Under the pieces are notes generated by a model. It was not told where the DNA came from, made no database searches, and saw only the letters and a list, made by a program, of their open reading frames with translations. A DNA stretch of 34,053 nt from Candidatus Limnocylindria bacterium (lineage in GTDB: Bacteria > Chloroflexota > Limnocylindria > QHBO01), in contig DATAKU010000084.1 of the NCBI GenBank assembly GCA_036261425.1, forward strand, positions 1 through 34,053, in the 5' to 3' direction. This document shows positions 7,163 to 34,053 of the stretch, piece after piece. Position 1 is the first letter of the stretch. Each line of letters opens with the position of its first letter. The position numbers and the translations under genes were made by a program.

Positions 7163-8665
7163 ATGTCACCGGACCTGGACTCCGCCCTCGGGACCGCCGC
7201 CGCGGCCCTGCTGGGGGATCGCCGCCTCATCATCGCCACCAACCGCGGGCCGGTGACCTTCACCACGGCCGCCGACGGGTCGCTGCGCCCGCGTCGCGGA
7301 TCCGGCGGCCTGGTCACCGCCCTGAGCCAGGTCAACCGGCACGTGCCGCTGACCTGGGTGGCCGCCGCGATGAGCGAGGGTGACCGTCGTGCGGCGGTCG
7401 ACCCCAAGCTCCTGCGGGACGTGGCCGGCGAGGACGACAACCTGCGCCTGCGGTTCGCGACCGTCGAGCGCTCCGTCTTCGAGCAGGCCTACAACGTCAT
7501 CGCCAACCCGCTCCTGTGGTTCCTGCAGCATCAGATGTGGAACCTGCCGGAGCGCCCGGTCATCGACGCCGGCACGATGCGCGCCTGGGAGCGCGGCTAC
7601 GTGGCGATGAACGACGCGTTCGCGCGCGCCGTCCTGACCCAGGCGCGCCAGGAGCGGCGGCCGCGGATCATGCTGCACGACTATCACCTCTACCTCGCCG
7701 CCGGACCGATCCGCCGCGCTCGTCCGGGCGCGATCCTCAGCCACTTCACCCACATCCCCTGGCCGCCGTCGTCGATCTGGCAGATCGTCGCCCCGCCGAT
7801 CCGCGAGGCGATCGCCACCGGGCTGCTGGCCAACGACGTCGTCGGCTTCCACACCGACCGCTATGCCCACAACTTCCTGCGCATGGTGGAGAGCTTCGTG
7901 CCCGACGCGAAGGTCGACTACGAGGCCAGTACCGTCCGCTGGCGTCGCCGCACGGTGCTGGTGCGGTCGTATCCCATCAGCATCGACGTGGAGGCCACGC
8001 GGCGGGTGGCGAACTCCCGCGCGGCGCGGCGGCGCGCCGAGCAGCTCATGGCCGCCACCCGGCAGCGGGTCATCGTGCGAGTCGACCGGCTGGAGCCCTC
8101 GAAGAACATCCTGCGCGGTTTCCTCGCGTTCGAGACGCTCCTCCAGCGCGCGCCGCGGCTCCGCGGCCGGATCAGCTTCCTCGCCTTCCTCGTTCCGTCG
8201 CGGACCGGCCTGCGGGAGTACAGCCACTACGGCCGCGAGGTCCAGAACGCGGTCGACCGCATCAACGCGCGCTACGGACGGGCCGACTGGAGACCGGTGC
8301 ACCTCTACTACGAGAACGACTACGCCCAGGCCCTCGCGGGCCTGTCGATCGCCGATGTCGTGCTCGTCAACCCGCTGATCGACGGCATGAACCTGGTGGC
8401 CAAGGAGGCCGCGGTGGTGAGCCAGCGGGACGCGGCGCTCGTCCTGTCGGAGACCGCCGGCGCGTTCGACCAGATGGCCGGCGGCGTGCTGCCGGTGGCG
8501 CCGGCCGACGTGCTGGGGACGGCCGACGCGCTGGCCACCGGGCTGGCCATGCCGCTCGAGGAGCGCCGCGAACGCCTGGCCCGCCTGCGGGAGGGCGTCG
8601 AGCGCGAGGACATCTCCTGGTGGCTGCGGCGCCAGTTCGAGGACCTCGCCGGGCTCACCGGCTGA
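7163..8665 (+). CDS. otsA: Trehalose-6-phosphate synthase (GT20)
   Basis: Collinear with E. coli OtsA: LIIATNRGPV, GGLVTAL, YNVIANPLLWFLQH, MLHDYHLYL, THIPWPP, VRVDRLEPSKNILRGF, NPLIDGMNLVAKE. Starts 4 nt after the nuoN stop. Confidence 0.85.
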   Translation: MSPDLDSALGTAAAALLGDRRLIIATNRGPVTFTTAADGSLRPRRGSGGLVTALSQVNRHVPLTWVAAAMSEGDRRAAVDPKLLRDVAGEDDNLRLRFATVERSVFEQAYNVIANPLLWFLQHQMWNLPERPVIDAGTMRAWERGYVAMNDAFARAVLTQARQERRPRIMLHDYHLYLAAGPIRRARPGAILSHFTHIPWPPSSIWQIVAPPIREAIATGLLANDVVGFHTDRYAHNFLRMVESFVPDAKVDYEASTVRWRRRTVLVRSYPISIDVEATRRVANSRAARRRAEQLMAATRQRVIVRVDRLEPSKNILRGFLAFETLLQRAPRLRGRISFLAFLVPSRTGLREYSHYGREVQNAVDRINARYGRADWRPVHLYYENDYAQALAGLSIADVVLVNPLIDGMNLVAKEAAVVSQRDAALVLSETAGAFDQMAGGVLPVAPADVLGTADALATGLAMPLEERRERLARLREGVEREDISWWLRRQFEDLAGLTG

Positions 8666-15877: not shown

Positions 15878-15883
15878 CCGACC

Positions 15884-17113
15884 GTGGCAACGACCACCGA
15901 CAAGGCCGCCAGCAACGGCCACAAGCCCAGCGACGGCAAGGTCCGCGTCGCCATCGTCGGCGTCGGCAACTGCGCCAGCAGCCTGGTCCAGGGCCGCTAC
16001 CACTACGCCGATGCGAAGGACGGCGACTTCATCCCGGGGCTCATGCACGTGAACCTGGGCGGGTATCACATCCGCGACATCGAGTTCGTCGCCGCCTTCG
16101 ACATCGACCGCAACAAGGTCGGCAAGGACCTCTCCGAGGCGATCTACACCGAGCCGAACAACACGTTCCGCTTCGCCGACGTGCCGCACCTGGGCGTGCC
16201 GGTCGAGCGCGGCATGACGCACGACGGCCTGGGCAAGTACCTGTCGGAGATCATCGAGAAGGCGCCCGGCCCGACGGCCGACATCGTGGGCATCCTCAAG
16301 GAGCGCGAGGTCGACGTCATGGTCAGCTACCTGCCGGTCGGCAGCGAGCAGGCCACCAAGTGGTACGCCGAGCAGGCGATCCAGGCCGGCGTCGCCTTCG
16401 TGAACGCCATCCCGGTCTTCATCGGCCGCGAGCCGTACTGGCAGCGGCGCTTCGCCGAGGCCGGCCTGCCGATCATCGGCGACGACATCAAGAGCCAGGT
16501 CGGCGCCACCATCACCCACCGCGTGCTCACCCGCCTGTTCATGGACCGCGGCGTGAGGATCGACCGCACCTACCAGCTGAACTTCGGCGGCAACACCGAC
16601 TTCCTCAACATGCTCGAGCGTGAGCGCCTCGAGTCGAAGAAGATCAGCAAGACCAACGCGGTGACCAGCATGATCGACTACGAGGTCGCCGACGAGGACG
16701 TCCACGTCGGGCCGTCCGACTACGTGCCGTGGCTGAAGGACCGCAAGTGGTGCCACATCCGGATGGAGGGCACCACCTACGGCGACGTCCCGCTCAACCT
16801 CGAGCTCAAGCTCGAGGTGTGGGACTCCCCCAACAGCGCCGGCGTCATCACCGATGCCATCCGCTGCGCGAAGCTCGGCCTCGACCGCGGCCTGGCCGGG
16901 ACGCTCGTCGCGCCGAGCTCCTACTTCATGAAGAGCCCGCCGATCCAGATCCACGACGACGTCGCCCACAACCGGGTGGAGGACTTCATCCGCGGCGACG
17001 ACAACGAGACCCTGGTCGGCACCGAGAAGCTCGAGGCGCGCAAGCCGAAGCGCGTCGCCGCCCCGAAGGGGAAGGCGGCCAAGGCCCGCGCCGAGACCGC
17101 GGACGTCGGCTGA
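15884..17113 (+). CDS. ino1: myo-Inositol-1-phosphate synthase
   Basis: [19 protein letters not shown] (NAD-binding N-terminus, as in actinobacterial Ino1), SYLPVGS and [19 protein letters not shown]. Has a Lys-rich ~35-aa C-terminal tail. Confidence 0.9.
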
Positions 17114-17177
17114 GATCGCATCCCCAGGGTGGCGGGCGTGAGCAGCGTCCGCCGCTTCCGGGGATAATCGCTCGCAG

Positions 17178-18194
17178 ATGTACGTCCCCAGGGTGGCGTC
17201 GGGGATCCTTCGCCGCCTGAGCCGCCCGTCCACGCCGGACGGGTCCGCCGCCCCCGAGCGCCGGCGCGAGGTGCTCACCTACTGGCTCTACCGCGCGGCC
17301 GAGCGGCTGATCAACGCCCTCCCGCGCCGGGTGGCGCTGGCCGCCGCGACGGCCGTCGGCAACGTGGCCTACGACCTGGCCGGCCCCAAGGGCCGCCTCA
17401 TCCGCGAGAACCTGTCGCGCCCCATGCGCCTGCCGGTAGACGATCCCCGCGTCGCCGCGGCGGCGCGCCGCGCGTTCCGCAACTACGCGAAGTACCTGGT
17501 CGACATGATGCGGATCGGCGAGATCGGCGAGGAGGAAGCGCATCGGCTCATCCTCATCGAGAACATCGAGCTCCTGCGGTCCGCGCGGGCGGAGGGCAAG
17601 GGCGTCATCATCAGCACCGTCCACGTCGGCGGCATGGACCTCATCGGTGCCGCCCTCAAGGCCCACGGCGAGACGCTCCACGTCGTCGCCGACGACACGA
17701 CCTACGGTCGCCTGTACGACCACCTGTCGGCCCAGCGCGCCAAGCAGCACGTCTTCCTCATCGGCTGGCGCAACCTGCGCGGCCTGTTCCGCGCCCTGCG
17801 CGGCGGCGGCAACCTCGTCCTGTTCTGCGACGGCGGCTATCGCCGAGGGGACGTCCCGGTCGAGTTCTGCGGGGAGGCCACCACCTTTCCGATCGGTCCG
17901 GCCACCCTGTCGGCCAAGACCGGAGCACCGATGCTGCCGGTCACCTGCCGTCGCCTCGAGGACGACCGCTTCCACGCCGGGGCCCTGCCGCTCGTCCACT
18001 GCGCCGGCACCGACCCGGCGGAGCTGTACCGCGCCACCCAGACCGTGGCGGACGAGCTCGGCGGGGTCATCGCCGCCGACCCGGGCCAGTGGTACATGTT
18101 CCGCCCGGTCTGGCCCCAGACCGATGCCGAACGCGAGCACGCCGCGCACGCCCTCGCCGCGGCCCGCCGCGGCGAGGACTGGACCCGGATCTGA
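17178..18194 (+). CDS. LpxL/HtrB-family lipid acyltransferase (PatA-like)
   Basis: N-terminal LYRAAERLINALPRRVALAAATAVGNVAYDL and the H-x4-D catalytic motif in STVHVGGMD. Its position next to the PI synthase and pimA mirrors the mycobacterial pgsA1-patA-pimA arrangement. Confidence 0.75.
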   Translation: MYVPRVASGILRRLSRPSTPDGSAAPERRREVLTYWLYRAAERLINALPRRVALAAATAVGNVAYDLAGPKGRLIRENLSRPMRLPVDDPRVAAAARRAFRNYAKYLVDMMRIGEIGEEEAHRLILIENIELLRSARAEGKGVIISTVHVGGMDLIGAALKAHGETLHVVADDTTYGRLYDHLSAQRAKQHVFLIGWRNLRGLFRALRGGGNLVLFCDGGYRRGDVPVEFCGEATTFPIGPATLSAKTGAPMLPVTCRRLEDDRFHAGALPLVHCAGTDPAELYRATQTVADELGGVIAADPGQWYMFRPVWPQTDAEREHAAHALAAARRGEDWTRI

Positions 18195-18199
18195 CGGGG

Positions 18200-19096
18200 A
18201 TGCTCCTTCGCTTGGCCCTCGAGCTCGCCGATCGCGTCGCGACGGCTCTGCCGCCCGGTGCCGCCTACCGCCTGGCCGACCTGGCCGGCGATGCGTGGCG
18301 CCGGTTCGCCCCCGCGCGGCGCCGCCTGGTCGCCGCGAACCTGCGTCGCGTGTGCGAGGCGACCGGCCGCCCGAGCTCGGGGCCGTCCTTCCTCCGGCTG
18401 GTGCGCGACGCGTTCCGCCACCACGCGCGCTACTACCTCGAGATCCTGCGCGGCCCGCACTACCCGATGGAGCAGATCGAGGAGATCGTGCAGGTGCCGC
18501 GCTGGGCGACCTTCGAGCCGCTCGTCCGCGATCGAGCCTCCATCCTCGTCAGCTGGCACTTCGGGAACCCGGAGCCGTTCGCCTCGTTCCTGGTGGCGCA
18601 GCGGATCCCCGTCCTGGCGCCGATCGAGGTCATCGAGCCGCGCGTCCTGTTCGACTTCCTGGTGGCCCGCCGCGGAGCGGGGCATCCCGAGCTCGTCGAC
18701 GTGCGGCGGGCGGCGCGACCCCTGGCCGAGCGCCTGCGGAGCGGGGGCATGGTCGGCGTGGTCGCCGACCGTGACCTGTCCGGCGATGGGTTGCCGGTCA
18801 CGATCTTCGGCCACCTCACCACCATGCCGGCCGGCCCGGCCTGGCTGGCGCTGGCGCATCGGTCCACCCTGCTCGCCGGCAGCGCCGTGCGCGTCGCACC
18901 GGAGCGCTTCGTTGCCGACGGCGAGCTGGTCGAGCTGCCCGACAGCGGCGATCGGCGCGCCGACATCCTGGAGCTGACGCGGCGGCTGGCCGCCCGGTTC
19001 GAGGCGGACGTGGCCGCGGCTCCCGAGCAGTGGTGGGGCGCCTTCCAGCCGGTCTGGCCTGACCTGCCCTCCGGCGGTGCGGGGGAGGTGGAGTGA
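18200..19096 (+). CDS. Second LpxL/HtrB-family lipid acyltransferase (paralogue)
   Basis: ATG 18200 lies 5 nt after the upstream stop. ALELADRVATALPPGAAYRLADLAGDAWRRF has the same layout as the upstream gene. Catalytic motif SWHFGNPE (H-x4-E). Confidence 0.7.
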   Translation: MLLRLALELADRVATALPPGAAYRLADLAGDAWRRFAPARRRLVAANLRRVCEATGRPSSGPSFLRLVRDAFRHHARYYLEILRGPHYPMEQIEEIVQVPRWATFEPLVRDRASILVSWHFGNPEPFASFLVAQRIPVLAPIEVIEPRVLFDFLVARRGAGHPELVDVRRAARPLAERLRSGGMVGVVADRDLSGDGLPVTIFGHLTTMPAGPAWLALAHRSTLLAGSAVRVAPERFVADGELVELPDSGDRRADILELTRRLAARFEADVAAAPEQWWGAFQPVWPDLPSGGAGEVE

Positions 19097-19884
19097 GCGA
19101 TTCGCCCACGGTCAGCGCAGGTCGGGCACGGGACGCGCGACCCCGGTCCGGCGGCGAGTGGGGCTGGGCCGACATGCACATCCACTCCCTCTACTCCGAT
19201 GGGACCGCGTCGGTCCGACAGATCCTGGATCACATCGAGCGCCACACCGAGCTCGACGTGGCGGCCATCACCGACCACGAGCGCATCGACGGCGCGCTGC
19301 GAGCCGCGGACCTCCACGCGGCCGGCGACTACTCGTTCGACCTGGTCGTGGGGGAGGAGGTCACCACGCGCCAAGGCCACGTGGTGGCCCTGTTCATCAC
19401 CGAGCGCATTCCTGCCCTGCGGCCCATCGAGGAGACGCTCCACCGCATCCACGCCCAGGGCGGCATCGCCATCGCGGCCCACCCCATGGCGCCGGTGCCG
19501 CTGAGCCTCGGAAGGCGGAGCCTGCGGCGCGTGCGCGACCACGAGCACGAGGACGTCTACCTCGACGCCATCGAGCTGTTCAACCCGAGCTACGCCGGGC
19601 GCGTTCGCCAGGGCGCACGGCTGGCGCTCAACGCCGCCGAGCTCGGTCTACCCGGCGTCGGCAACTCGGACGCCCACGTCCTGGCCGGCATCGGCACCGG
19701 GTTCACCGCCTTCCGCGGGAGCACCGCCCAGGAGTACCGACGCGCCATCGAGGCGGGGGAGGTCGCCGCCGAGGGGTCCCACTGGTCGTCGGTGCACAAC
19801 GTCGACGTCTACCGGCGCCAGCTCCACGCCAAGCTGCGACACCTCTGGCACACCCTGAAGCCCGGCGACGAGGACTGGCGCTGA
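19093..19884 (+). CDS. PHP-domain (TrpH/YciV-like) metal-dependent phosphoesterase
   Basis: PHP motifs appear in order: DMHIHSLYSDG, AITDHE, GEEVTT, IAIAAHP, NSDAHV. GTG 19093 overlaps the upstream stop (GTGA) and is preceded by GGGGGAGG. Confidence 0.8.
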   Translation: MSDSPTVSAGRARDARPRSGGEWGWADMHIHSLYSDGTASVRQILDHIERHTELDVAAITDHERIDGALRAADLHAAGDYSFDLVVGEEVTTRQGHVVALFITERIPALRPIEETLHRIHAQGGIAIAAHPMAPVPLSLGRRSLRRVRDHEHEDVYLDAIELFNPSYAGRVRQGARLALNAAELGLPGVGNSDAHVLAGIGTGFTAFRGSTAQEYRRAIEAGEVAAEGSHWSSVHNVDVYRRQLHAKLRHLWHTLKPGDEDWR

Positions 19885-19933
19885 TCCGGTACGCGCGTCG
19901 CGACCATGACGGAGTTCCGGCATACTCGGTCGC

Positions 19934-21106
19934 GTGACGTCGCTCGCCCCCTCGCCGACGACGACCGCGACGCGGCCACCGCTCCGCATCGGCATCGTCA
20001 GCCCGTACGGCTACCCGCACCCTGGGGGCGTCAACGAGCACGTCCACCACACCTACCAGGCCATGCGGCGCATGGGGCACGACGCCTGGGTCATCACCAG
20101 CAAGTACGGCCGCGAGCGCGAGAGCGAGGGCCATGTCATCCGGCTCGGGACCGGCTGGGCCTTCCCGGCCAACGGCAGCGTCGGACGCGTCACCCTGGGC
20201 CTGCGCTTCAAGCGTCAGGCGCGCGAGGTGCTCCAGGCGCATCGGTTCGACATCCTCCACTTCCACGAGCCCTTCGTGCCGTTCCTGTCCCCGACCGTGC
20301 TGGAGGCGTCGGAGACGGTCAACATCGCCACGTTCCACGCCTTCGGCGGATTCAGCCCCAGCTACTGGATCGGCCGGCGCTTTGCCGGGCCGCTGGCTGA
20401 GCTGCTCCACGGCCGGATCGCGGTCTCCGGCGCGGCCCGGCACTTCATCAGCCGCTACTTCCCGGGCGACTACGAGATCATCCCGAATGGCGTGGACGCG
20501 GACCTCTACGCCGGTGCCGAACCCTACGAGGAGCTCCGGGACGGAACGCTGAACATCCTGTTCGTCGGACGCTTCGAGGAGCGCAAGGGACTGATCCACC
20601 TCCTCAAGGCCTATCACCGGCTCCGTAAGCGCAAGGTCGACGCTCGACTGCTGGTGGTGGGAGCCGGGCCGAAGGAGCGCGAGTACCGGCGCTTCGTCGG
20701 GCTGCGCGGCATCCGCGACGTCGAGTTCCTCGGACGCGTCAGCGACGAGGAGAAGCGCCGCTACTTCGCGTCGGCCGACATCTTCTGCGCCCCGAACACC
20801 GGCCAGGAGTCCTTCGGCATCGTCCTGCTGGAGGCCATGGCCGCCGGTGTCCCGATCGTGGCCAGCGACATCCACGGCTTCAAGAACGTCATCCAGCGCA
20901 ACGTCCAGGGGATCCTGGTCGAGCCGCGCAACCCGCGGGCCCTCGCGGCCGCGCTCTACGCGCTGGCGCGCGACCCCGACCTCCGCCACGAGATGGGCGA
21001 TGCGGGCCGAGCACGCGCTCCCGAGTACAGCTGGGAGCGCGTCACCGAGCGTGTCATCGACTACTACCACGAGGTCCGTGACCGGGTCCTGTCCGACCGA
21101 ACCTGA
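19934..21106 (+). CDS. pimA: GT4 glycosyltransferase, PimA-like phosphatidylinositol mannosyltransferase
   Basis: N-terminus LRIGIVSPYGYPHPGGVNEHV parallels mycobacterial PimA (RIGMVCPY..PGGVQSHV). GT4 C-terminal motif ESFGIVLLEAMAAGVPIVASD. Genomic context with the PI synthase and acyltransferases. Confidence 0.75.
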   Translation: MTSLAPSPTTTATRPPLRIGIVSPYGYPHPGGVNEHVHHTYQAMRRMGHDAWVITSKYGRERESEGHVIRLGTGWAFPANGSVGRVTLGLRFKRQAREVLQAHRFDILHFHEPFVPFLSPTVLEASETVNIATFHAFGGFSPSYWIGRRFAGPLAELLHGRIAVSGAARHFISRYFPGDYEIIPNGVDADLYAGAEPYEELRDGTLNILFVGRFEERKGLIHLLKAYHRLRKRKVDARLLVVGAGPKEREYRRFVGLRGIRDVEFLGRVSDEEKRRYFASADIFCAPNTGQESFGIVLLEAMAAGVPIVASDIHGFKNVIQRNVQGILVEPRNPRALAAALYALARDPDLRHEMGDAGRARAPEYSWERVTERVIDYYHEVRDRVLSDRT

Positions 21107-26279: not shown

Positions 26280-26404
26280 CGAAACTACGTCGTTTGTCGC
26301 ATCGGTCCCGTGCCGGCCGGCGGTCGCGGAAGGGTCATTCGGCCCTGCGGCACCGACGACCGGATCGGTAAGGTGGTGCCACCCGAGCCTGGAGAATTCC
26401 GTAC

Positions 26405-27373
26405 ATGCAGGCGAATCGCGGCCTCGTCTTCTGGGGCGTCGCCCTCATCACCGCGGGCGCCGTCGCGCTCGCCATCCAGTCAGGCGTCATTTCGGGCGAG
26501 GTGGCCCGCGACGTCTGGCGCTTCTGGCCGATCGTGCTCGTCATCATCGGCCTGGCCATCATCGCGGCGCGTACCCCGTTCGCGCTGGTCGTCACCCTGC
26601 TGGCCGGCCTGGTGGTCGGCGGCCTGGGCGGCTCGCTCGTCGCGGGCTGGCCGGACGGCATCAGCATCGGCTGCGGCGGCGAGCCGACCGAGCGACTGGC
26701 CGACCAGGGCAGCTTCGCCGGTGGCGGCGCCGAGGTGGAGCTCGACTTCAACTGCGGTGAGCTGGCCGTGTCGACGGCGGCCGGGAGCGACTGGTCGCTC
26801 GATGCGCGCCACGGGTCAGGCGATGCGCCGGAGGTCCGTTCCTCCGATGACGCCCTCCGCGTCATCCACCATGGCGGCAGCGGTGCCTTCTTCAGCGCCG
26901 CCGAGGCCCGCGAGGAGTGGGACGTCACGCTGCCGGCCGATACCGAGCTGGACCTTGCCATCGACGCCAACGCGGCCTCCAGTGAGCTGGACCTGACGGA
27001 TGCGGCCTTCTCGGCCCTCGGGGTCGACGCGAACGCAGGCGAGGTCCACCTGGCGCTCGACGGCTCGTCGGTCGACGACTTCTCGATCAGCACCAATGCG
27101 GGGTCGGTCTCGATGACCGTCGACACCGAGACCGAGCTGTCCGGGTCGATCGGCATGAACGCCGGCTCCTTCGAGCTGTGCGTGCCCGATGGCGTCGCCA
27201 TCGAGATCACCGTGGAGGACGCGAACATCACGTTCAGCCACGACCTCGACGAGAGCGGCCTGTCGCAGTCCGGAGACACCTGGCGCAGCGAAGACGGCGC
27301 GGCCGACGTGCGGCTCAGCCTGGAGGGCAACGCCGCCAGCTTCAGCTACAACCCCGACGGAGGATGCTCATGA
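26405..27373 (+). CDS. LiaF-like / DUF4097 toastrack membrane protein
   Basis: N-terminal 3 TM (FWGVALITAGAVALAI, FWPIVLVIIGLAIIAA, LVVTLLAGLVVGGLGG). The C-terminal domain has repeated short strands of the toastrack type: IDANAASSELDL, VDANAGEVHLAL, ISTNAGSVSMTV, IGMNAGSFELCV. GGAGA lies 9 nt before the ATG. Confidence 0.7.
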   Translation: MQANRGLVFWGVALITAGAVALAIQSGVISGEVARDVWRFWPIVLVIIGLAIIAARTPFALVVTLLAGLVVGGLGGSLVAGWPDGISIGCGGEPTERLADQGSFAGGGAEVELDFNCGELAVSTAAGSDWSLDARHGSGDAPEVRSSDDALRVIHHGGSGAFFSAAEAREEWDVTLPADTELDLAIDANAASSELDLTDAAFSALGVDANAGEVHLALDGSSVDDFSISTNAGSVSMTVDTETELSGSIGMNAGSFELCVPDGVAIEITVEDANITFSHDLDESGLSQSGDTWRSEDGAADVRLSLEGNAASFSYNPDGGCS

Positions 27374-27861
27374 ACCGCCGCCTCTATCGCTCCCGCACCG
27401 ATCGCGTGCTGGGGGGCGTGGCCGCTGGCGTGGCCGACTACGTGAACGCCGATCCGGCGCTGGTCCGCATCGCATGGGCGATCCTCGTGCCGCTCACCAG
27501 CGGCCTGGCGCTGCTCGTCTACATCGTCGCCTGGATCGCGGTGCCGGAGGCCCCGGTCGACGCCCCGATGGTGCAGCCCCTCGTCGGCGACGCGACCGGC
27601 ACCGAGGGCCTCGACGCGGGCGCGGAGCGCGGGGCCGCGGAGCCCGGGTCGGCATGGACGCCGCCGGCGCCGGTGGAGCGCCGCGACGGCAACGCCGGCC
27701 TGATCATCGGCGCGGGCCTGGTCATCCTCGGGCTGTGGTTCCTGCTGCGCGAGTACCTGCCGGGCATCGACTGGGGTCTGATCTGGCCGCTGTTCATCGT
27801 GGGTGTCGGCGTGGTCATCCTCGTCAACGCGACGCGCAACCGCAGCGGGCCGGCGGCCTAG
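27370..27861 (+). CDS. PspC-domain membrane protein
   Basis: MNRRLYRSRTDRVLGGVAAGVADYVNADPALVRIAWAILVPLTSGLALLVYIVAWIAVPE is the PspC domain. C-terminal LiaI/LiaF-like double TM. The ATG overlaps the upstream stop (ATGA). Confidence 0.85.
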   Translation: MNRRLYRSRTDRVLGGVAAGVADYVNADPALVRIAWAILVPLTSGLALLVYIVAWIAVPEAPVDAPMVQPLVGDATGTEGLDAGAERGAAEPGSAWTPPAPVERRDGNAGLIIGAGLVILGLWFLLREYLPGIDWGLIWPLFIVGVGVVILVNATRNRSGPAA

Positions 27862-30800
27862 CCGCCCTCGGGCATCGGATCCGGGGCGGGCGGCGCGGCG
27901 GCCGCCTGTCGTCGCTCCCACCAGTCGCGTCCGGCGAGCGCGAAGAGCATCGCCCCGGCCGCCACGGCCGCCCCGGCGGCGAGCTTGAGCCCGCTCAGGG
28001 TGAGCAGCTCGGCGCGCTCGCCCTGCGGCGGATCGGGGAACTGGAAGCCGAAGTTCCAGGGCGGTAGCGCGCGCGCGGCGTTGACGTACCAGTCCGGCAT
28101 GGCCAGCGCCGAGTTCAGCGGGAAGATCAGGATGCCGGCCACCACCACCAGCGCGAGGTAGCCGATGGCGATGTCGCGCCACGCCGGCCGGCGCAGGAGC
28201 TCGTCGACGACGTAGGCCACGGCAACCATGGCGAAGATGACCGCCGTGAGGTAGTGGTACGCGAACGTCGCGCGTTCGATGCGGATCCACGGCACGTACT
28301 GGAAGGCGAAGGCCGCGACCAGGAGCACGAGCGCCGGCGAGCGGCGCTTCCAGGCCAGCACGCCGATGGTGACCACGGCCGGGATGCCGGCCCAGAACAG
28401 GAGCGGGTTGCCGCCGTTGTAGATGACCGCGATCTGGTCGGCGTCGTACGCGGTGCCGCCGAAGAACCAGGTCGGCTTGAGGGCCAGCGGCCAGCTCCAC
28501 CACGGCGAGGCGCTGTCGTGGCCCGCGGTCAGGTTGAAGTGGTAGCCGAACATCTGGGCGTGGAGCTCGTCGAGCGACCATCCGTACCCCGGACCGCCGC
28601 CGACCGCCCACTCGTGGCCCAGCTGCAGGTAGGGCAGGTAGCTCAGGCCGTAGACGACGAGCGGCACGACGAGCAGGCTGGCGCCGACCCAGGCCCACGC
28701 GAAGCCGCCCATCTCGCCGGGCCGGAACCAGCGCGCATCGGATGACGGGTCGCGGACCGACGCCCAGGCGCGCCAGGCCAGCAGGATGGCCGCCACGCCG
28801 ACCATCAGCCACGCCGGCCAGCCGGCCTGGACGCCCCGAGCCAGGAGGCCGAACAGGTACTCGACCGCGCTGCCCGGGGTCCGACCCTCGACGCTGCCGA
28901 AGCCGAGGACGAAGGCCAGCGTCACGCCACTCACCACGACGGCCGTGGCCGACAGCGCCACCAGCGCCTCGCGCCAGGGCATGCGGATCGGCCGCGCCCA
29001 GGCGATGACCAGGGCCAGGGCCAGGACGCCGAGCATCGTGACCAGGAACGGCCACGGCGCGCCGATGCCGCCCACGACGGCGGACAGTGCCGCCAGGCCG
29101 ACCAGGACCAGGCGCCCGAGCGACGAGCGCGCCAGCACCAGCACCAGCAGCCCGAAGAGCGCGTAGAAGCCGACCCACTTGGTGGCGGCCGCCAGGCCGA
29201 TGAGGACGCCGACGAGCGGCAGCACCCACCACGCGCTCCGGCTCCAACGCCCCGACCAGACCTGCCAGAAGAGCAGGTAGGCGGCCACGATGAAGACCGC
29301 GACGAAGATGTCGTTCATCGCGATCCGGCTCATCACGTAGCTCATGCCGTCGACCGCCACGAAGGCCGCCGCCAGCAGGGCGATGCCCCGGCGGCTGAAC
29401 ATCGTGGCCGCCAGCAGGTAGACGAGGCCGACGAGGATGGCCCCGAAGACCACGCCCGCCAGCCGCCAGGCGAAGGCGGTGCTGCCGGCATCGATGTGGA
29501 CGAGCGTGCCGTCAGCGGTCGCAACGAGGAGCCGGCCGTGGTCGTCCGCCTGGCCCGTGGTGGCGATGTCGAAGGCCATGGCCACCGGCGTGCCGGGCAG
29601 GTCCGTGGCGTCGAAGGTGGCCATGCCGATCGTCCCGTCGCCGCGGCGCTCGACGTGCGGCTCCACCACCCAGACCTGCGCGTCGCCCTCCGGCGTCGTG
29701 CCGGCGACGTAGACGAGGTTCGCGAGCCGCTGGTCGGCGATGAGCGTCGGCGCTCCGGGAAGCGGCACCAGCCCGACCAGACGCTCCTCGTCGGCGTCCA
29801 CGGCCGCGATCCCACCCCGTGTGGCGGGATGCTCCTCGGTGGCCGGCAGCGGGCCGGTGAGGGCCAGGAGCTGCTGATCGTCGCCGCCGCCCCGGACCAG
29901 GATCGGTCCGACCAGCGCCGCCCCGATCTCGAGCGTGCCGTCCTCGAGAGGCTGGAGCGTGGCAGCGTCGAGGAAGGCGATGCTGCCCCGCTCGACGTCG
30001 CTGACCGCGACGCGGTCCGGGTCGTCCTCGGCCCCGCGCACCAGGCCGATGCCCCCGTAGGTGCCGGATGCGCGCGCGGTCACCTCGTCGCTGGCCGGGT
30101 CCACGGTGGCGACGCCGTCCGGGCCGCGGAGCAGGATGGGCGAGCCGCTGGAAGTGAGAACCACGACCTGGTTGACGGCAGCCAGGTCCACCTCGATCGG
30201 CGGCCCGGACGGCGGGGCGCGGCCGTCGGGCGAGGCCAGCAGGCCGGCCAGCTCGTACGTCTCCACGGTCCCGGCGTCGGCGCGGCCGACGAGGAGCCGC
30301 GGCGCCTCCGGATCGTAGGCCAGGGCCGCGACCGGTCCGCCCGCCTGCCAGCGGGCGAGCTCATCGCCGGACTCCGCGTCGGTGGCGACGACCGTCGAGG
30401 TGCCGGACAGCGTGAAGGCGACGGACCGGTCGCGCCCGAACGCCGCGCGGGCCGGCGCGACGGCGAGCGTCGGCGAGGGCTCGTCCAGCTCATCGCTGTC
30501 GATGACCCGGTTCGGATCGGCGAGGACGATGCCGCCGGCGATCAGGTACTTCGCCAGCATCGGGTGGGTCCACTCGTAGACGTCGCGGTCCCAGCCGTGC
30601 TGCCAGTTGGCCAGCCACTCGGCCGCCGAACGGGCGTGGTAGACCTCGTCGAAGTGGTGGCCGCGCGGCACGTCGAGCCGCCACAGGCGGAAGACCAGGG
30701 CGAACAGGACCAGGGCCAGGAGGAGCCACGCGTCGCGTCGGTCGAGGCGCCGTCCCGGCTCGCGCAGGTACGCGTCCGCCGGGTTCGGGGCGAGCCACCG

Positions 30801-32498
30801 CGGCCCGCGCCCGTCGCCTGAGGCGGCCGGGTCGACCCGGGTGGCGCCCCAGTCGGCCGGAGCCGGGGCGCGCGGGGCGATGGGGGCCGGTGCCCCGACG
30901 ACTGGTTCCGGCTCGCTGGCCGAAGGCGGGGTCGGCACGGGCTCCGACGCGTGGCTGGCCGCCAGGCGCAGGGCGTGCCAGACGACCGCGCCGAGGAGCA
31001 CCACGCTGAGGAACGAGAGCGCCCAGATCCCCGCGTCGGTCAACAGGGTGGCGCTCAGCAGGCCGTCCTGCTCCATCGGCGCGCCGCCCAGTCCCGGGTT
31101 CATGACGCGCGGGCCGGCGAAGGACCAGTCCTCGGTGTAGACCCAGTACACGTTGGCGAAGAAGCTCAGCGACAGTCCGCCGTAGATCCACGGCCACGAG
31201 CGACCGGCGAACAGGAGCGGCGCCGCCAGTGCCAGGGCCGGGAAGAGGTAGCGCTCGTGCACGCGGGTGGGGAGCACGAAGAAGGCGACCGCCAGCAGGA
31301 GCGCGGCGAGCAGCACCCCGCGCACGTCGTCGCGCCGCGCGACGACCACCAGGGCGATGATCGCGGCCGCGGCGAAGAGCACGGTGCCGACGTGCTGCCA
31401 CGTCAGGCCGATGCCGCCGAGGGTGATGGCCGCGACCGTGTCGTCGCCCCAGTGCAGCGTGTCGCCCAGTCCGCTCCACGGGTTGCGCCACAGGTTGAAC
31501 GCGTTGATGCTCAGGCCGGTGTACGTGCCGGCTGCCTCGGCCAGCTTGCCGATCAGGCTCGTCGTCGGGTCCGCCTCGGGGAACAGGCCCAGCAGGCCCC
31601 GCGGGTCGCCCCCCGCCCGCGGCGCGTAGATCGTCATGCCGAACGGCAGCATCATCGCCACGAGCGGCACCACGCCGGCGGCCAGCGAGGTCAGGACGCG
31701 CAGGAGGTCCGGCCGATCGCGGTGCAGCGGGTCCGCGGATCGAGCGAACAGGTGGCGCTTCAGCCCGACGATCGCCACGATCGGGATCAGGAACGCGAAC
31801 TGGAACTTCACCAGCAGCGCGAGCACCGCGCCGAACGCCGCCGCCTCGGTCCACCCGCGCGCGAGGGCGTAGATCGTCGCCAGCAGCACCAGCGTGCCGA
31901 CCGAGTCGATCTGGCCCCATACCGCCGAGTCGAAGATGACGCCGGGATTGAACAGGTAGGCCGTGGCGGCCACCAGGCCCAGCGCCTGCGGCGCCACGCC
32001 GAGGCGCGCGCGGTCCGCCAGCTGGCTTCCCCATCGGCGACAGGTGGCGAACAGCAGCCAGGCCACACCGATGTCGGCCAGGATGCCCGGGATCTTCACC
32101 AGCCCGCCGGTGGCGTCCTGCCCGACCAGCGGCGTCAGCGCCCCGCCGATCCCGCCGAGCAGCCAGAGCACGTAGAGGTACCCCGGCGGGTAATCGCTGA
32201 AGTAGCCCTCTTCGTAGAATGCGGCTGGCCCGACGCTTGCTAGGCGCTGGCCCCAGGCGGTGAAGTCGCCGATGTCGATGGCGAATCCGCTGAGCGGCAT
32301 GTAGACGCCGGCGATCAGGACGCGCAGGACCAGGCCGAGGACGAGGACCGTGGTGAGGATGGTGCCGGCGTCGAGCCGCCTGATCGTGTCCACAATCCCC
32401 ACGCCCCGTCGGCCGACGGGGTCGCGGGTCATCAGGTGCGGCGCCCCCGTGGAGCGCGCCGTGTCGTGTCGCACGCCAAGGTGGCGGTGAGTATACAT
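27858..32498 (-). CDS. 1546-aa fusion of two GT-C glycosyltransferase modules (DYPP-type module + PMT/GT39-like module carrying a ~345-aa beta-rich insertion)
   Basis: ATG 32498 lies 4 nt after GGAGG. Upstream codons of track ORF 27858-34016 are antisense to a real plus-strand gene. Module 1 (aa ~40-515) is multi-TM with YFSDYPPGYLYVLW and RVHERYLFP. A Pro/Ala linker spans aa 516-585. Module 2 has HHFDEVYHARSAAEW, YEWTHPMLAKYLI, FAWRLAGVVFG and a C-terminal ATFAYHYLTAV. Confidence 0.75.
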   Translation of the reverse strand: MYTHRHLGVRHDTARSTGAPHLMTRDPVGRRGVGIVDTIRRLDAGTILTTVLVLGLVLRVLIAGVYMPLSGFAIDIGDFTAWGQRLASVGPAAFYEEGYFSDYPPGYLYVLWLLGGIGGALTPLVGQDATGGLVKIPGILADIGVAWLLFATCRRWGSQLADRARLGVAPQALGLVAATAYLFNPGVIFDSAVWGQIDSVGTLVLLATIYALARGWTEAAAFGAVLALLVKFQFAFLIPIVAIVGLKRHLFARSADPLHRDRPDLLRVLTSLAAGVVPLVAMMLPFGMTIYAPRAGGDPRGLLGLFPEADPTTSLIGKLAEAAGTYTGLSINAFNLWRNPWSGLGDTLHWGDDTVAAITLGGIGLTWQHVGTVLFAAAAIIALVVVARRDDVRGVLLAALLLAVAFFVLPTRVHERYLFPALALAAPLLFAGRSWPWIYGGLSLSFFANVYWVYTEDWSFAGPRVMNPGLGGAPMEQDGLLSATLLTDAGIWALSFLSVVLLGAVVWHALRLAASHASEPVPTPPSASEPEPVVGAPAPIAPRAPAPADWGATRVDPAASGDGRGPRWLAPNPADAYLREPGRRLDRRDAWLLLALVLFALVFRLWRLDVPRGHHFDEVYHARSAAEWLANWQHGWDRDVYEWTHPMLAKYLIAGGIVLADPNRVIDSDELDEPSPTLAVAPARAAFGRDRSVAFTLSGTSTVVATDAESGDELARWQAGGPVAALAYDPEAPRLLVGRADAGTVETYELAGLLASPDGRAPPSGPPIEVDLAAVNQVVVLTSSGSPILLRGPDGVATVDPASDEVTARASGTYGGIGLVRGAEDDPDRVAVSDVERGSIAFLDAATLQPLEDGTLEIGAALVGPILVRGGGDDQQLLALTGPLPATEEHPATRGGIAAVDADEERLVGLVPLPGAPTLIADQRLANLVYVAGTTPEGDAQVWVVEPHVERRGDGTIGMATFDATDLPGTPVAMAFDIATTGQADDHGRLLVATADGTLVHIDAGSTAFAWRLAGVVFGAILVGLVYLLAATMFSRRGIALLAAAFVAVDGMSYVMSRIAMNDIFVAVFIVAAYLLFWQVWSGRWSRSAWWVLPLVGVLIGLAAATKWVGFYALFGLLVLVLARSSLGRLVLVGLAALSAVVGGIGAPWPFLVTMLGVLALALVIAWARPIRMPWREALVALSATAVVVSGVTLAFVLGFGSVEGRTPGSAVEYLFGLLARGVQAGWPAWLMVGVAAILLAWRAWASVRDPSSDARWFRPGEMGGFAWAWVGASLLVVPLVVYGLSYLPYLQLGHEWAVGGGPGYGWSLDELHAQMFGYHFNLTAGHDSASPWWSWPLALKPTWFFGGTAYDADQIAVIYNGGNPLLFWAGIPAVVTIGVLAWKRRSPALVLLVAAFAFQYVPWIRIERATFAYHYLTAVIFAMVAVAYVVDELLRRPAWRDIAIGYLALVVVAGILIFPLNSALAMPDWYVNAARALPPWNFGFQFPDPPQGERAELLTLSGLKLAAGAAVAAGAMLFALAGRDWWERRQAAAAPPAPDPMPEGG

Positions 32499-34053
32499 CG
32501 AGCCTCCGACGGCTCCGGGACGCGCACCGATGCGCCGGACGGACGCCGCTGGATCCCCTACAGCCGCAACAGCGTCGCCTTCGCCGCGGCGCTGGTCAGC
32601 GTGCTCGCGCTGGCCCTGTACCTGCGCACCATGCTGCCTTCGACCGGCTTCTGGGACACGGGGGAGGCACAGACGGTGCCGCCCACCCTGTCGATCTTCC
32701 ACCCGACCGGGTTCCCGTTCTACTCGCTCCTCGGCTGGGCCTGGAGCCAGCTGCCCATCGGCGAGGTGGCGTGGCGCATGAACCTGCTCTCGGCGGGCTG
32801 CGTCGCGCTGGCGGCCGGGCTGGTGACGCTCATCGCCGGCCACCTCGTCGTCGAGCGCCACCGTTGGCTGGCGGGGTCGGCCGTGGCGGTGGCCGGGCTG
32901 GCCTTCGCCTTCGCCTCCGAGCCCTGGCAGAACGGGACGCGGGCGGACGTCCATGCCATCAACGTCCTCTTCGTGGCGCTGGTCGTCTGGCTCCTCCTGG
33001 CCTGGGGGGCCGCGGAGCGCGCCGGGGGCCCTCGCGCCGGTCGCTGGCTGGCCGCGGCCGCGGCCGCGTTCGGGCTCGGGCTGGCCACGCATCCGCTCTC
33101 GGGCCTCGCCGCCTTCGGCATCGCCGTCTGGCTGCTGGTGGTCGACCCGGCCATCTGGCGCCGATGGCGGCTGGTGCTGGGCTCGGCCGTGCTCATCGGC
33201 TTGGGCATCGCGCTGTACGGGACGATCTACCTGCGAGCCGTCATCGAGCCGGCACCGCCGCTCTTCTACGCCCACCCCAACACCTGGGAGAACTTCCGCT
33301 ACCTCGTCTTCGCCGAGCAGTTCCGCGGCCTGTTCGAGGAGTTCGGCTCGCCCCTCGCCGACCTCGGCCGGAAGTGGGTTGGCGCCGAGCGAGTCCTCGC
33401 CGCCCAGCTGTCCGGCCCCGGCTGGCTGCTGGTCGCGATGGGGGCGGCCGTGACCGCCACCAGGCGGCCGGGCGTGGTCGCGTTCCTCGGCCTGGTGGCG
33501 GTGGCCACCACCCTCTACGCGGTGAACTTCCGCGACGGGGACATCGATCGCTACTACCTGCCGGTCCTGGTGGTGACGATCCCGTTCCTCGGCGTGGCGG
33601 TGGCCGCGATCGGCGCAGCCGCGGCGTCGGCCCTGGCGGAGATCGGCCGGCGGATGGTCGCTTCCCGCGCGGCGCGGCACCGGCTGGCGAACCTGGCGGG
33701 GGCGATCGTGGTCGCCCTCGGAGCCGCGGTGCCGATCGCATCGCTCGTCACCGGCTACGAGGCGAACGACCAGAGCGCCAACCGCGAGGCCGATGCGTGG
33801 GTCGCATCGGTCCACGCCCAGCTGCCGCCGAACGCGGTGGTCATCAGCTGGTGGAGCTACAGCACGCCGCTCTGGTACCACCGATGGGTCCTGGGGGAGC
33901 GGCCGGACGTGACGATCGTCGACGAGCGCAACATCCTCGACGATGGGTACCGTACGATGCACAACGCCATCCGGACCTTCCTCGGCGAGCGGCCGGTGTA
34001 CGTGGTGCCGCCGCACTGGGAATGGGCCGATCTCGCCCGGGAATGGAGCTTCC
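32487..34053 (+). CDS. DUF2723 (TMEM260-like) GT-C family glycosyltransferase, 3' end outside window
   Basis: This open frame is not listed in the track. It reads WIPYSRNSVAFAAALVSVLALALYLRTMLPSTGFWDTGEAQTVPPTLSIFHPTGFPFYSLLGW, the DUF2723 signature. It stays open to 34053 (...VISWWSYSTPLWYHRWVLGERPDVTIVDERN...). There is no ATG. Candidate GTG starts are at 32487 and 32481, so the start is uncertain. Confidence 0.65.
   Translation, partial: MSIHRASDGSGTRTDAPDGRRWIPYSRNSVAFAAALVSVLALALYLRTMLPSTGFWDTGEAQTVPPTLSIFHPTGFPFYSLLGWAWSQLPIGEVAWRMNLLSAGCVALAAGLVTLIAGHLVVERHRWLAGSAVAVAGLAFAFASEPWQNGTRADVHAINVLFVALVVWLLLAWGAAERAGGPRAGRWLAAAAAAFGLGLATHPLSGLAAFGIAVWLLVVDPAIWRRWRLVLGSAVLIGLGIALYGTIYLRAVIEPAPPLFYAHPNTWENFRYLVFAEQFRGLFEEFGSPLADLGRKWVGAERVLAAQLSGPGWLLVAMGAAVTATRRPGVVAFLGLVAVATTLYAVNFRDGDIDRYYLPVLVVTIPFLGVAVAAIGAAAASALAEIGRRMVASRAARHRLANLAGAIVVALGAAVPIASLVTGYEANDQSANREADAWVASVHAQLPPNAVVISWWSYSTPLWYHRWVLGERPDVTIVDERNILDDGYRTMHNAIRTFLGERPVYVVPPHWEWADLAREWSF

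Follow-up and report, generated by a model that had tools for sequence, protein, structure and literature searches.

Bacterial protein O-mannosyltransferases (PMTs, family GT39) have been proposed to act as part of a larger complex. In Mycobacterium smegmatis, a pull-down of Pmt recovers homologs of Rv0051 and Rv3212 together with a DivIVA-like protein. The Rv0051 homolog is a GT87-like glycosyltransferase of the C fold (GT-C) that is said to lack catalytic residues, the Rv3212 homolog is an eight-bladed periplasmic propeller, and in an AlphaFold3 model this propeller sits directly over the active site of Pmt in a manner that resembles the MIR domains of Pmt1-Pmt2 (bioRxiv 10.64898/2026.07.15.738315). 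The same preprint notes a Paenibacillus GT39 protein that is translationally fused to a GT87 module (UniProt V9WAU2). Here, we describe a gene in a 34,053-nucleotide stretch of DNA from a Candidatus Limnocylindria bacterium of the phylum Chloroflexota (contig DATAKU010000084.1, assembly GCA_036261425.1; the whole stretch is hereafter called the window), which encodes comparable parts in a single polypeptide. The protein consists of a 12-helix GT-C module, a Pro/Ala-rich linker, and a GT39/PMT module that carries a 345-aa insertion in external loop 1 (EL1). We consider it fairly probable, though well short of certain, that this soil Chloroflexota fusion is a single-chain version of the bacterial Pmt holoenzyme.

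The mycobacterial Pmt complex (Rv1002c, Rv0051, Rv3212, and the DivIVA-like Rv1209) likewise combines a GT39 enzyme, a second GT-C, and a propeller at the catalytic loop. However, the Limnocylindria parts are covalently joined and belong to the phylum Chloroflexota, the propeller lies within EL1 instead of forming a separate membrane-anchored protein, and the blades number seven here and eight in ML0810c/Rv3212. In addition, the catalytic residues of the ALG6 type are present in the N-terminal GT-C module (N-module) but are said to be missing from Rv0051, and no DivIVA-like part was identified here, although no search aimed at one was made. Like the fusion, the eukaryotic Pmt1-Pmt2 pair (PDB 6P25) has a DE motif in loop 1, an Arg where transmembrane helix (TM) 2 begins, and a PMT_4TMC region. 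It works as two paired GT-C subunits, and on its luminal side a beta-rich accessory domain lies close to the active site. In the eukaryotic enzyme, however, the partner is a second PMT and not an ALG6-like protein, the lipid carrier is dolichol, and the accessory domain, a MIR beta-trefoil, is found in the large luminal loop behind TM7 and not, as the propeller is, in loop 1.

The C-terminal part of the fusion matches two Pfam families above their cutoffs. PMT_4TMC (PF16192) covers aa 1311-1459 (E 3.7e-19, 69.5 bits against a cutoff of 32.4), and PMT (PF02366) scores 57.3 bits against a cutoff of 22.7 in two stretches, the best of which pairs aa 1007-1123 with profile positions 81-198. A phmmer comparison with yeast Pmt1 (6p25_A) pairs aa 588-664, including the DE motif and the HPPLAK helix, with Pmt1 residues 48-117, and aa 1012-1119 with Pmt1 residues 138-246. 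Within these blocks, D617-E618 aligns with Pmt1 D77-E78 and Arg1012 aligns with Pmt1 Arg138 at the start of TM2; each is at least 90% conserved among 118 sequences. The insertion site is located between Pmt1 residues 117 and 138, which is the end of the luminal or external loop 1 from the HPxLAK helix to TM2, and the alignment blocks therefore indicate that ~347 aa stand in place of ~20 aa of luminal loop 1. In the PMT of M. tuberculosis (MtPMT), EL1 is the periplasmic loop that bears the catalytic Asp (PMC12331936). The NCBIfam equivalog for actinobacterial Pmt, NF058602, scores 25.1 bits against a cutoff of 800, and no Pfam match to a MIR domain was found in the fusion protein.

To describe the insertion, aa 655-1010 were modeled with AlphaFold2 using a 118-row alignment. 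The resulting model is an all-beta domain of 30 strands with a predicted local distance difference test score (pLDDT) of 94.8 and a predicted template modeling score (pTM) of 0.93. Foldseek returned 1671 matches in the PDB at E ≤ 1e-3, and WD40-type propellers ranked at the top. The best of these are seven-bladed and include UTP15 (template modeling score, TM-score, 0.68), Groucho/TLE1 (0.66), and a Thermomonospora WD40 protein, with overall TM-scores of 0.63-0.68. Identity to the structural matches is 9-16%, and a Pfam scan of the insertion revealed no propeller repeat family (WD40, PQQ, or other), with PQQ_2 reaching only E 0.15. The propeller enters EL1 about 45 residues past the DE motif and, judged from the insertion point alone, would sit over the PMT catalytic pocket. 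We found no publication on a PMT with an EL1 propeller, on a GT-C fusion with a propeller, or on the Limnocylindria fusion proteins or glycosylation in Limnocylindria, and nothing specific beyond the preprint cited above; the in-cis propeller variant of the dual GT-C fusion thus appears to be undescribed.

The N-module was modeled in the same way (AlphaFold2, aa 35-520, pLDDT 90.5, pTM 0.92). The top Foldseek match is yeast ALG6 (6snh, E 4.3e-7, TM-scores 0.63/0.64), followed by glycosylphosphatidylinositol (GPI) mannosyltransferase I (GPI-MT-I, 9wno), PIG-U (7w72, TM-scores 0.50/0.56), and ALG3, with weaker matches to STT3, ArnT, and Emb. At the sequence level, Pfam PIG-U (PF06728) scores 28.2 bits against a cutoff of 24.5 over profile positions 79-195 of 378 only, Alg6_Alg8 (PF03155) remains at 16.9 bits, below its cutoff of 25, GT87 (PF09594) gave no match to the fusion protein even at E ≤ 10, and a single-sequence phmmer search of the N-module against the PDB gave no match. 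A profile built from 24 diverse family members did match GPI mannosyltransferase 1 (1.5e-7) and ALG6 (2e-6, over profile positions 7-390), while the PimE structure was not matched by it. Based on the model, the N-module has a GT-C fold whose nearest relative is ALG6, in the neighborhood of ALG6, GPI-MT-I, PIG-U, and GT87.

The profile alignment also brings out the putative active site of the N-module. D75 and the residues H-E-R-Y are invariant among the 24 diverse members, and D102 is present in all fused members of the same alignment. The ALG6 residue that pairs with D75 is D69, which we take to be the catalytic base. ALG6 has 14 helices. Compared with ALG6 (GT57, 6SNH) and GPI mannosyltransferase I (GT50, 9WNO and 23GF), which are its best fold and profile matches, the N-module is bacterial and fused to a PMT, has ~12 predicted helices, and falls below the Alg6_Alg8 cutoff. 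ALG6 Asp99 and His378, which pair with D102 and H414, are essential (review PMC10859629). Aligned in this way, both GT-C modules retain the acidic and histidine residues that are essential in characterized relatives, and the conservation of D75, D102, H414, and the DE motif therefore makes a two-active-site enzyme plausible. ALG6, ArnT, PglB, and PimE have all been assigned to the GT-C_A subclass (PMC12041525), a placement that puts both modules of the fusion in GT-C_A.

The linker that joins the modules is the least conserved and most indel-rich stretch of the protein in the orthologue alignment. It is bordered by Arg-rich ends and is followed by RRLDRRD and then PMT TM1. The model and hydropathy of the N-module show Arg-rich loops on alternate sides, with D75, DYPP, and HERY in the opposite-side loops. 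The even helix count and the positive-inside pattern suggest that both ends of the N-module lie in the cytoplasm and hence that the linker is cytoplasmic. On this topology, the two active sites would point outward, as would the propeller.

The reading frame of the fusion is long and intact. On the minus strand it stays open from 34016 to 27858. The 506 codons 5' of the ATG at 32498 are R/G/D/H-rich and lie antisense to a divergent plus-strand gene, which has high third-position GC, begins near 32490, and exits the window end; the coding region is thus taken as 32498-27858 (1546 aa). In the database, the gene is called from Met23 (32432), 22 codons downstream, which gives a product of 1524 aa. 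The 22 codons before Met23 (MYTHRHLGVRHDTARSTGAPHL; window 32433-32498, minus strand) are kept in several orthologues and the orthologue P0005 has Thr at the Met23 position, and therefore the true start may be the upstream ATG at 32498. This ATG touches or overlaps the region in which the divergent gene starts; that gene encodes a TMEM260-like GT-C.

An original prediction, made from the letters of the window, had described an intact 1546-codon frame in which an ALG6/ALG8-like first module and a PMT/GT39-like second module share one chain, the latter being split by a beta-propeller. This anatomy is borne out by our analysis. The open frame covers 27858-32498, the quoted motifs were all found at the positions given, and the PMT module is secured by PF02366 and PF16192. 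The propeller is recovered as a confidently modeled seven-bladed domain. The first module, whose failure to match any GT-C family or fold would have spoken against the prediction, has an ALG6-like GT-C fold, with ALG6 as the best Foldseek match. The prediction had also stated that the two EL1 motifs flanking the insertion normally lie close together, which holds in yeast Pmt1 and in fused relatives without the insertion (gap ~5 aa). The coordinates of all features are collected in Table 1.

Table 1. Features of the fusion gene and its surroundings. Positions refer to the window except where a related locus (L001, L002) is named.
Feature	Position	Strand	Basis or remark
Whole fusion gene	27858..32498	-	1546 aa from ATG at 32498; stop codon 27858-27860
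N-terminal GT-C module (aa 35-515), ~12 TM helices, ALG6/GPI-MT-I/PIG-U-like	30954..32396	-	AlphaFold2, Foldseek, profile
EL1 motif SGFAIDIGDF (aa 70-79); Asp75 invariant, pairs with ALG6 Asp69	32262..32291	-	Alignment of 24 diverse members and ALG6
DYPPGY motif (aa 102-107); Asp102 pairs with ALG6 Asp99	32178..32195	-	Profile alignment to ALG6
RVHERY motif (aa 412-417); His414 pairs with ALG6 His378 (ALG6 VHEK)	31248..31265	-	Profile alignment to ALG6
Pro/Ala-rich variable linker (aa 516-585), probably cytoplasmic	30744..30953	-	Lowest identity (0.26) and most gaps among orthologues; no Pfam match
PMT module part 1: TM1, start of EL1, DE motif (D617-E618, nt 30645-30650), YEWTHPMLAKYLI helix	30519..30743	-	Aligned to yeast Pmt1 48-117; near-invariant in orthologues
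Seven-bladed WD40-type beta-propeller in EL1 (aa 661-1005)	29484..30518	-	AlphaFold2 and Foldseek
PMT module part 2: TM2 onward (aa 1006-1300)	28599..29483	-	Pfam PF02366; alignment to 6p25_A 138-246
PMT_4TMC C-terminal four-helix region (aa 1311-1459)	28122..28568	-	Pfam PF16192
C-terminal tail: one extra hydrophobic segment (about aa 1505-1525), Pro/Ala-rich end	27861..28001	-	Hydropathy peak at aa 1513; low conservation
TMEM260-like GT-C, divergent neighbor, cut by window end	32490..34053	+	Pfam PF11028, 2.2e-27
GT2, 251 aa	L001 7619-8374; L002 9106-9861	-	Adjoins the cluster in nearly all related loci
PspC	27178-27861	+	Convergent to fusion; end overlaps fusion stop codon by 4 nt
LiaF-like/DUF4097 protein	26372-27373	+	Convergent to fusion
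Myo-inositol-1-phosphate synthase	15878-17113	+	
Acyltransferase	17142-18194	+	Best NCBIfam match phosphatidylinositol mannoside acyltransferase (6.5e-41, below cutoff)
GT4	19910-21106	+	After PHP protein in stretch 15878-21106

The fusion is not confined to this genome. The 119 best further homologs are 64-77% identical to the fusion, and both modules are conserved. Their lengths run from 1371 to 1573 aa, with 117 falling at 1483-1573 aa, and query coverage is 89-100% for 116 of the 119. Where named, they come from metagenome-assembled genomes (MAGs) of Candidatus Limnocylindria or Chloroflexota and carry generic protein names. When the species genomes of GTDB were scanned for TR[VMI]HERYx[FYV][PA], at least 585 stretches were confirmed, and the best 80 of these were classed with hidden Markov models of the modules. 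Save for a few oddly named bins, these 80 loci belong to Limnocylindria/Chloroflexota. At the species level, 48 of the 80 loci contain the complete fusion in one open reading frame (ORF), and another 20 run off the contig end but are consistent with the fusion up to there. The gene is split in seven loci, six of which show multi-frameshift patterns scattered along the gene, several in MFD 'uncultured Chloroflexia' MAGs. The seventh, L045, is from a bin named Pleomorphomonadaceae that is probably mis-binned, and has a single in-frame stop in the linker (7555-7557), so that the N-module and the PMT lie in two ORFs of one frame; the gene may be naturally split, the stop may be a sequencing error, or it may be read through.

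In the remaining five loci, the N-module is followed by another C-terminal region. Proteins of a third group (L060, L063, L065, and L066; P0139 and P0142) are ~1270-1500 aa long, carry the N-module at 41-47% identity, and have a C-terminal region of ~800 aa with no PMT and no Pfam family. Members of ~1800 aa (35-40% identity) were considered as paralogues, a view that was rejected. The 345-aa insertion is homologous to their ~400-aa insertion (hhalign probability 99.4%, E 1.6e-21), and this result together with the shared synteny indicates that they are divergent orthologues.

When the N-module was searched exhaustively, 3687 cluster representatives passed E ≤ 1e-3. Of those listed, 35 are 900 aa or longer, and ~25 of the 35 join the N-module to a PMT. 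Nearly all of these fusions show a gap of 300-470 aa, located at the same place in EL1; P0256 and P0264 are without it. P0264 has 1024 relatives, and the best 120 of the 1024 are all fused, 958-1179 aa long, and without a propeller; where named, they belong to Clostridia (Defluviitaleaceae, Butyribacter, Velocimicrobium). P0264 and P0281 carry a discoidin-like domain of ~130 aa (aa about 470-590) between PMT TM1 and the DE motif. This domain, of the F5/8 type C class (PF00754 in the precomputed annotation of P0281 and some relatives), is at the opposite end of EL1 from the propeller. The Firmicutes fusions, V9WAU2 and the P0264 type from Defluviitaleaceae and other Clostridia, thus share the module order, DYPP, HERY, and the PMT DE motif with the Limnocylindria protein but differ in length (~960-1180 aa), in the lack of a propeller, in a gap of ~5 aa from the N-terminal PMT part to the core, and in the discoidin-like domain before the DE motif. 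Homologs of the N-module that stand alone (~410-520 aa) occur in MAGs of Dormibacterota and Chloroflexota. Their matches to GT87, PIG-U, and Alg6_Alg8 are borderline, and the Clostridial relatives give borderline or precomputed GT87 matches. The N-module and PMT fusion is therefore retained across two phyla, and dual GT-C fusions are common in databases and are mentioned once, in passing, in the literature.

The surroundings of the fusion, read from the orthologues P0009 and P0002, are conserved across the class. A 741-aa protein and a BFN-domain protein on the forward strand are followed by a GT2 and mostly a TMEM260-like GT-C on the reverse strand, then by the fusion on the forward strand, and finally by PspC and a LiaF-like protein on the reverse strand. 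The GT2 of the window's own genome would fall past the window end. For the GT2 of the related loci, the best NCBIfam matches are dolichyl-P hexose transferase (6e-21), ArnC, PgfS, AglJ, and PpgS, all below the equivalog cutoffs, and we regard it as a candidate donor synthase that would make a polyprenyl-P-hexose. The TMEM260-like protein is the third GT-C of the cluster and adjoins the fusion in most related loci; human TMEM260 is a protein O-mannosyltransferase (PMC10214176). No flippase candidate was identified in the window. The arrangement is reminiscent of Streptococcus mutans Pgf (the GT-A PgfS with the GT-Cs PgfM1 and PgfM2) and of other three-component GT2/flippase/GT-C systems, where a GT2 is likewise clustered with at least two GT-Cs for extracytoplasmic O-glycosylation. 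In Pgf, however, the GT-Cs are of other families and encoded by separate genes, and there is no propeller.

Several further genes lie near the fusion or its orthologues. The cluster is origin-proximal, ~10 kb from rpmH/dnaA/dnaN/recF (L001 1-7048; L002 1-8309). The conserved 741-aa protein, which has no Pfam family, is located between recF and the GT2 and could be a substrate or a further component. On the other side, PspC and the LiaF-like protein form an envelope-stress pair that is syntenic in many related loci. Farther away in the window, the stretch 15878-21106 looks like an actinobacterial-type early phosphatidylinositol mannoside (PIM) pathway in a Chloroflexota genome.

With this distribution and context in hand, three parts of the original prediction call for amendment. 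Its example of a prime-then-extend role is plausible, but the preprint reads the second GT-C differently, as an obligate dimer partner of Pmt. It had regarded the protein as a self-contained machine, which is not the case given the conserved cluster with its GT2 candidate and TMEM260-like GT-C. It had also held that no dual GT-C fusion was described, a statement outdated by the Clostridial P0264 relatives and by the Paenibacillus GT39-GT87 fusion (bioRxiv 10.64898/2026.07.15.738315). The comparison of fused and split architectures that it called for favors the fused form, as the counts above show. The possibility it raised that the same architecture is already common and functionally annotated turned out to be half right, since the fusion is common but its members carry generic names only.

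Taken together, these observations are consistent with the single-chain holoenzyme introduced above. The GT2 would make a polyprenyl-P-hexose, most likely the mannose form, at the cytoplasmic face, and after flipping, the PMT module would move the sugar onto Ser/Thr of exported proteins. The propeller over the catalytic pocket would select or gate the acceptor proteins, by analogy with the role of the eukaryotic MIR domains, which has also been proposed for mycobacterial Rv3212/ML0810c. The N-module would be the in-cis equivalent of the Pmt dimer partner, similar to Pmt2 in yeast or Rv0051 in mycobacteria. Because its ALG6-type catalytic residues are intact, the N-module probably also transfers a lipid-linked hexose, and the simplest assumption for this step would be that it lengthens the O-linked sugar. 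In this scheme, the data show the domain identities, the insertion site, the conservation, the cluster, and the retained catalytic residues, and we infer the donor sugar, the protein acceptors, the position of the propeller over the pocket, the packing of the two GT-C bundles, and the N-module activity. Three points weigh against it. The NF058602 score, 25 bits where 800 are needed, marks the fusion as a distant PMT and not an Rv1002c-type orthologue. The propeller has seven blades where ML0810c has eight and matches no Pfam family, and its likeness to the mycobacterial propeller may be analogy. Finally, Rv0051 is described as being without catalytic residues and the N-module has them, and therefore the role of a partner is not the same as the role of an enzyme.

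A rival reading, the original prediction taken strictly, is a prime-then-extend enzyme, in which the PMT site primes Ser/Thr, the N-module adds the next hexose, and the propeller holds the acceptor between the two sites, such that the fusion would serve substrate channeling and not dimer scaffolding. We see this as a real possibility but a doubtful one. Both sets of catalytic residues are intact and conserved, the fusion is retained across two phyla, the characterized relatives of the N-module (ALG6 and GPI-MT-I) act on glycan and not protein acceptors, and the GT-C PimE elongates O-mannose in M. tuberculosis (PMC12331936), all of which would fit. However, the mycobacterial Pmt-associated GT-C seems to be catalytically dead and yet aids Pmt function (bioRxiv 10.64898/2026.07.15.738315), so physical partnership alone can explain the co-occurrence, and the TMEM260-like neighbor could equally be the second-step enzyme. 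That mycobacterial partner, reported to be without catalytic residues, is also an argument for an N-module that is a non-catalytic pseudo-glycosyltransferase similar to PIG-U or Rv0051 and that serves as a scaffold, a lipid-binding partner, or an acceptor-recruiting partner. The sole Pfam family above cutoff, PIG-U, is indeed a non-catalytic GT-C-fold subunit, but the match covers only positions 79-195 of that profile and the residues aligned to ALG6 D69, D99, and H378 are kept in the fused family, and we find a purely structural role decidedly unlikely. A more far-reaching reading, which we offer tentatively and consider somewhat unlikely, would make the fusion a two-active-site single-chain O-glycan synthase whose propeller captures exported proteins, whose PMT site primes them, and whose ALG6-like site, together with the TMEM260-like GT-C, extends or diversifies the glycan. 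With the GT2 it would form a conserved origin-proximal glycosylation island and would represent the ancestral, catalytically complete state from which mycobacterial Pmt, Rv0051, and Rv3212 degenerated into separate, partly inactive subunits.

Alternatively, the N-module could act on a lipid-anchored glycan, such as a PIM/lipomannan-like molecule or another envelope polymer, and the fusion would merely co-localize two consumers of polyprenyl-P-mannose. The PIM-type early-pathway set is 7-12 kb away in the window, the two enzymes structurally closest to the N-module (ALG6 and GPI mannosyltransferase I) glycosylate lipid-linked acceptors, and ALG6 is also the closest structural homolog of PimE (PMC12041525). 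Nonetheless, unrelated genes (PspC, LiaF-like, an ABC transporter, and GNATs) separate the PIM-like genes from the fusion, the N-module profile did not match the PimE structure, and the conservation of so tight a fusion in two phyla speaks for a functional link to the PMT; we consider this explanation unlikely. An assembly or frameshift artifact, by which two neighboring genes were wrongly joined, can practically be dismissed. The linker is GC-rich and of low complexity, and the gene is split in seven of the 80 related loci. However, two wrongly joined genes are rejected by the comparative data, as the complete one-ORF fusions come from 48 independent species-level assemblies with the 20 truncated loci in agreement, the splits other than the single in-frame stop of L045 are scattered multi-frameshifts, and the same fusion occurs in Clostridia.

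The case for a bacterial Pmt complex made in the preprint rested on AlphaFold predictions and one pull-down (bioRxiv 10.64898/2026.07.15.738315). The presence of three parts of that complex in one polypeptide, in another phylum and across a whole class, is independent, evolution-based ("Rosetta stone") support for it. The fusion also offers a stoichiometrically defined single-chain target for electron cryomicroscopy and enzymology of the bacterial Pmt holoenzyme. As the ALG6-type residues are kept, the family makes it testable whether the Pmt partner was ancestrally an enzyme, which would prime and extend, or only a scaffold. More broadly, acceptor-side accessory domains have been recruited repeatedly beside the PMT active site, whether as MIR domains, as discoidin-like domains, or as propellers in trans or in cis. 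The fusion is of value because it backs the proposed bacterial Pmt complex from the side of evolution and gives experiments a handle on it.

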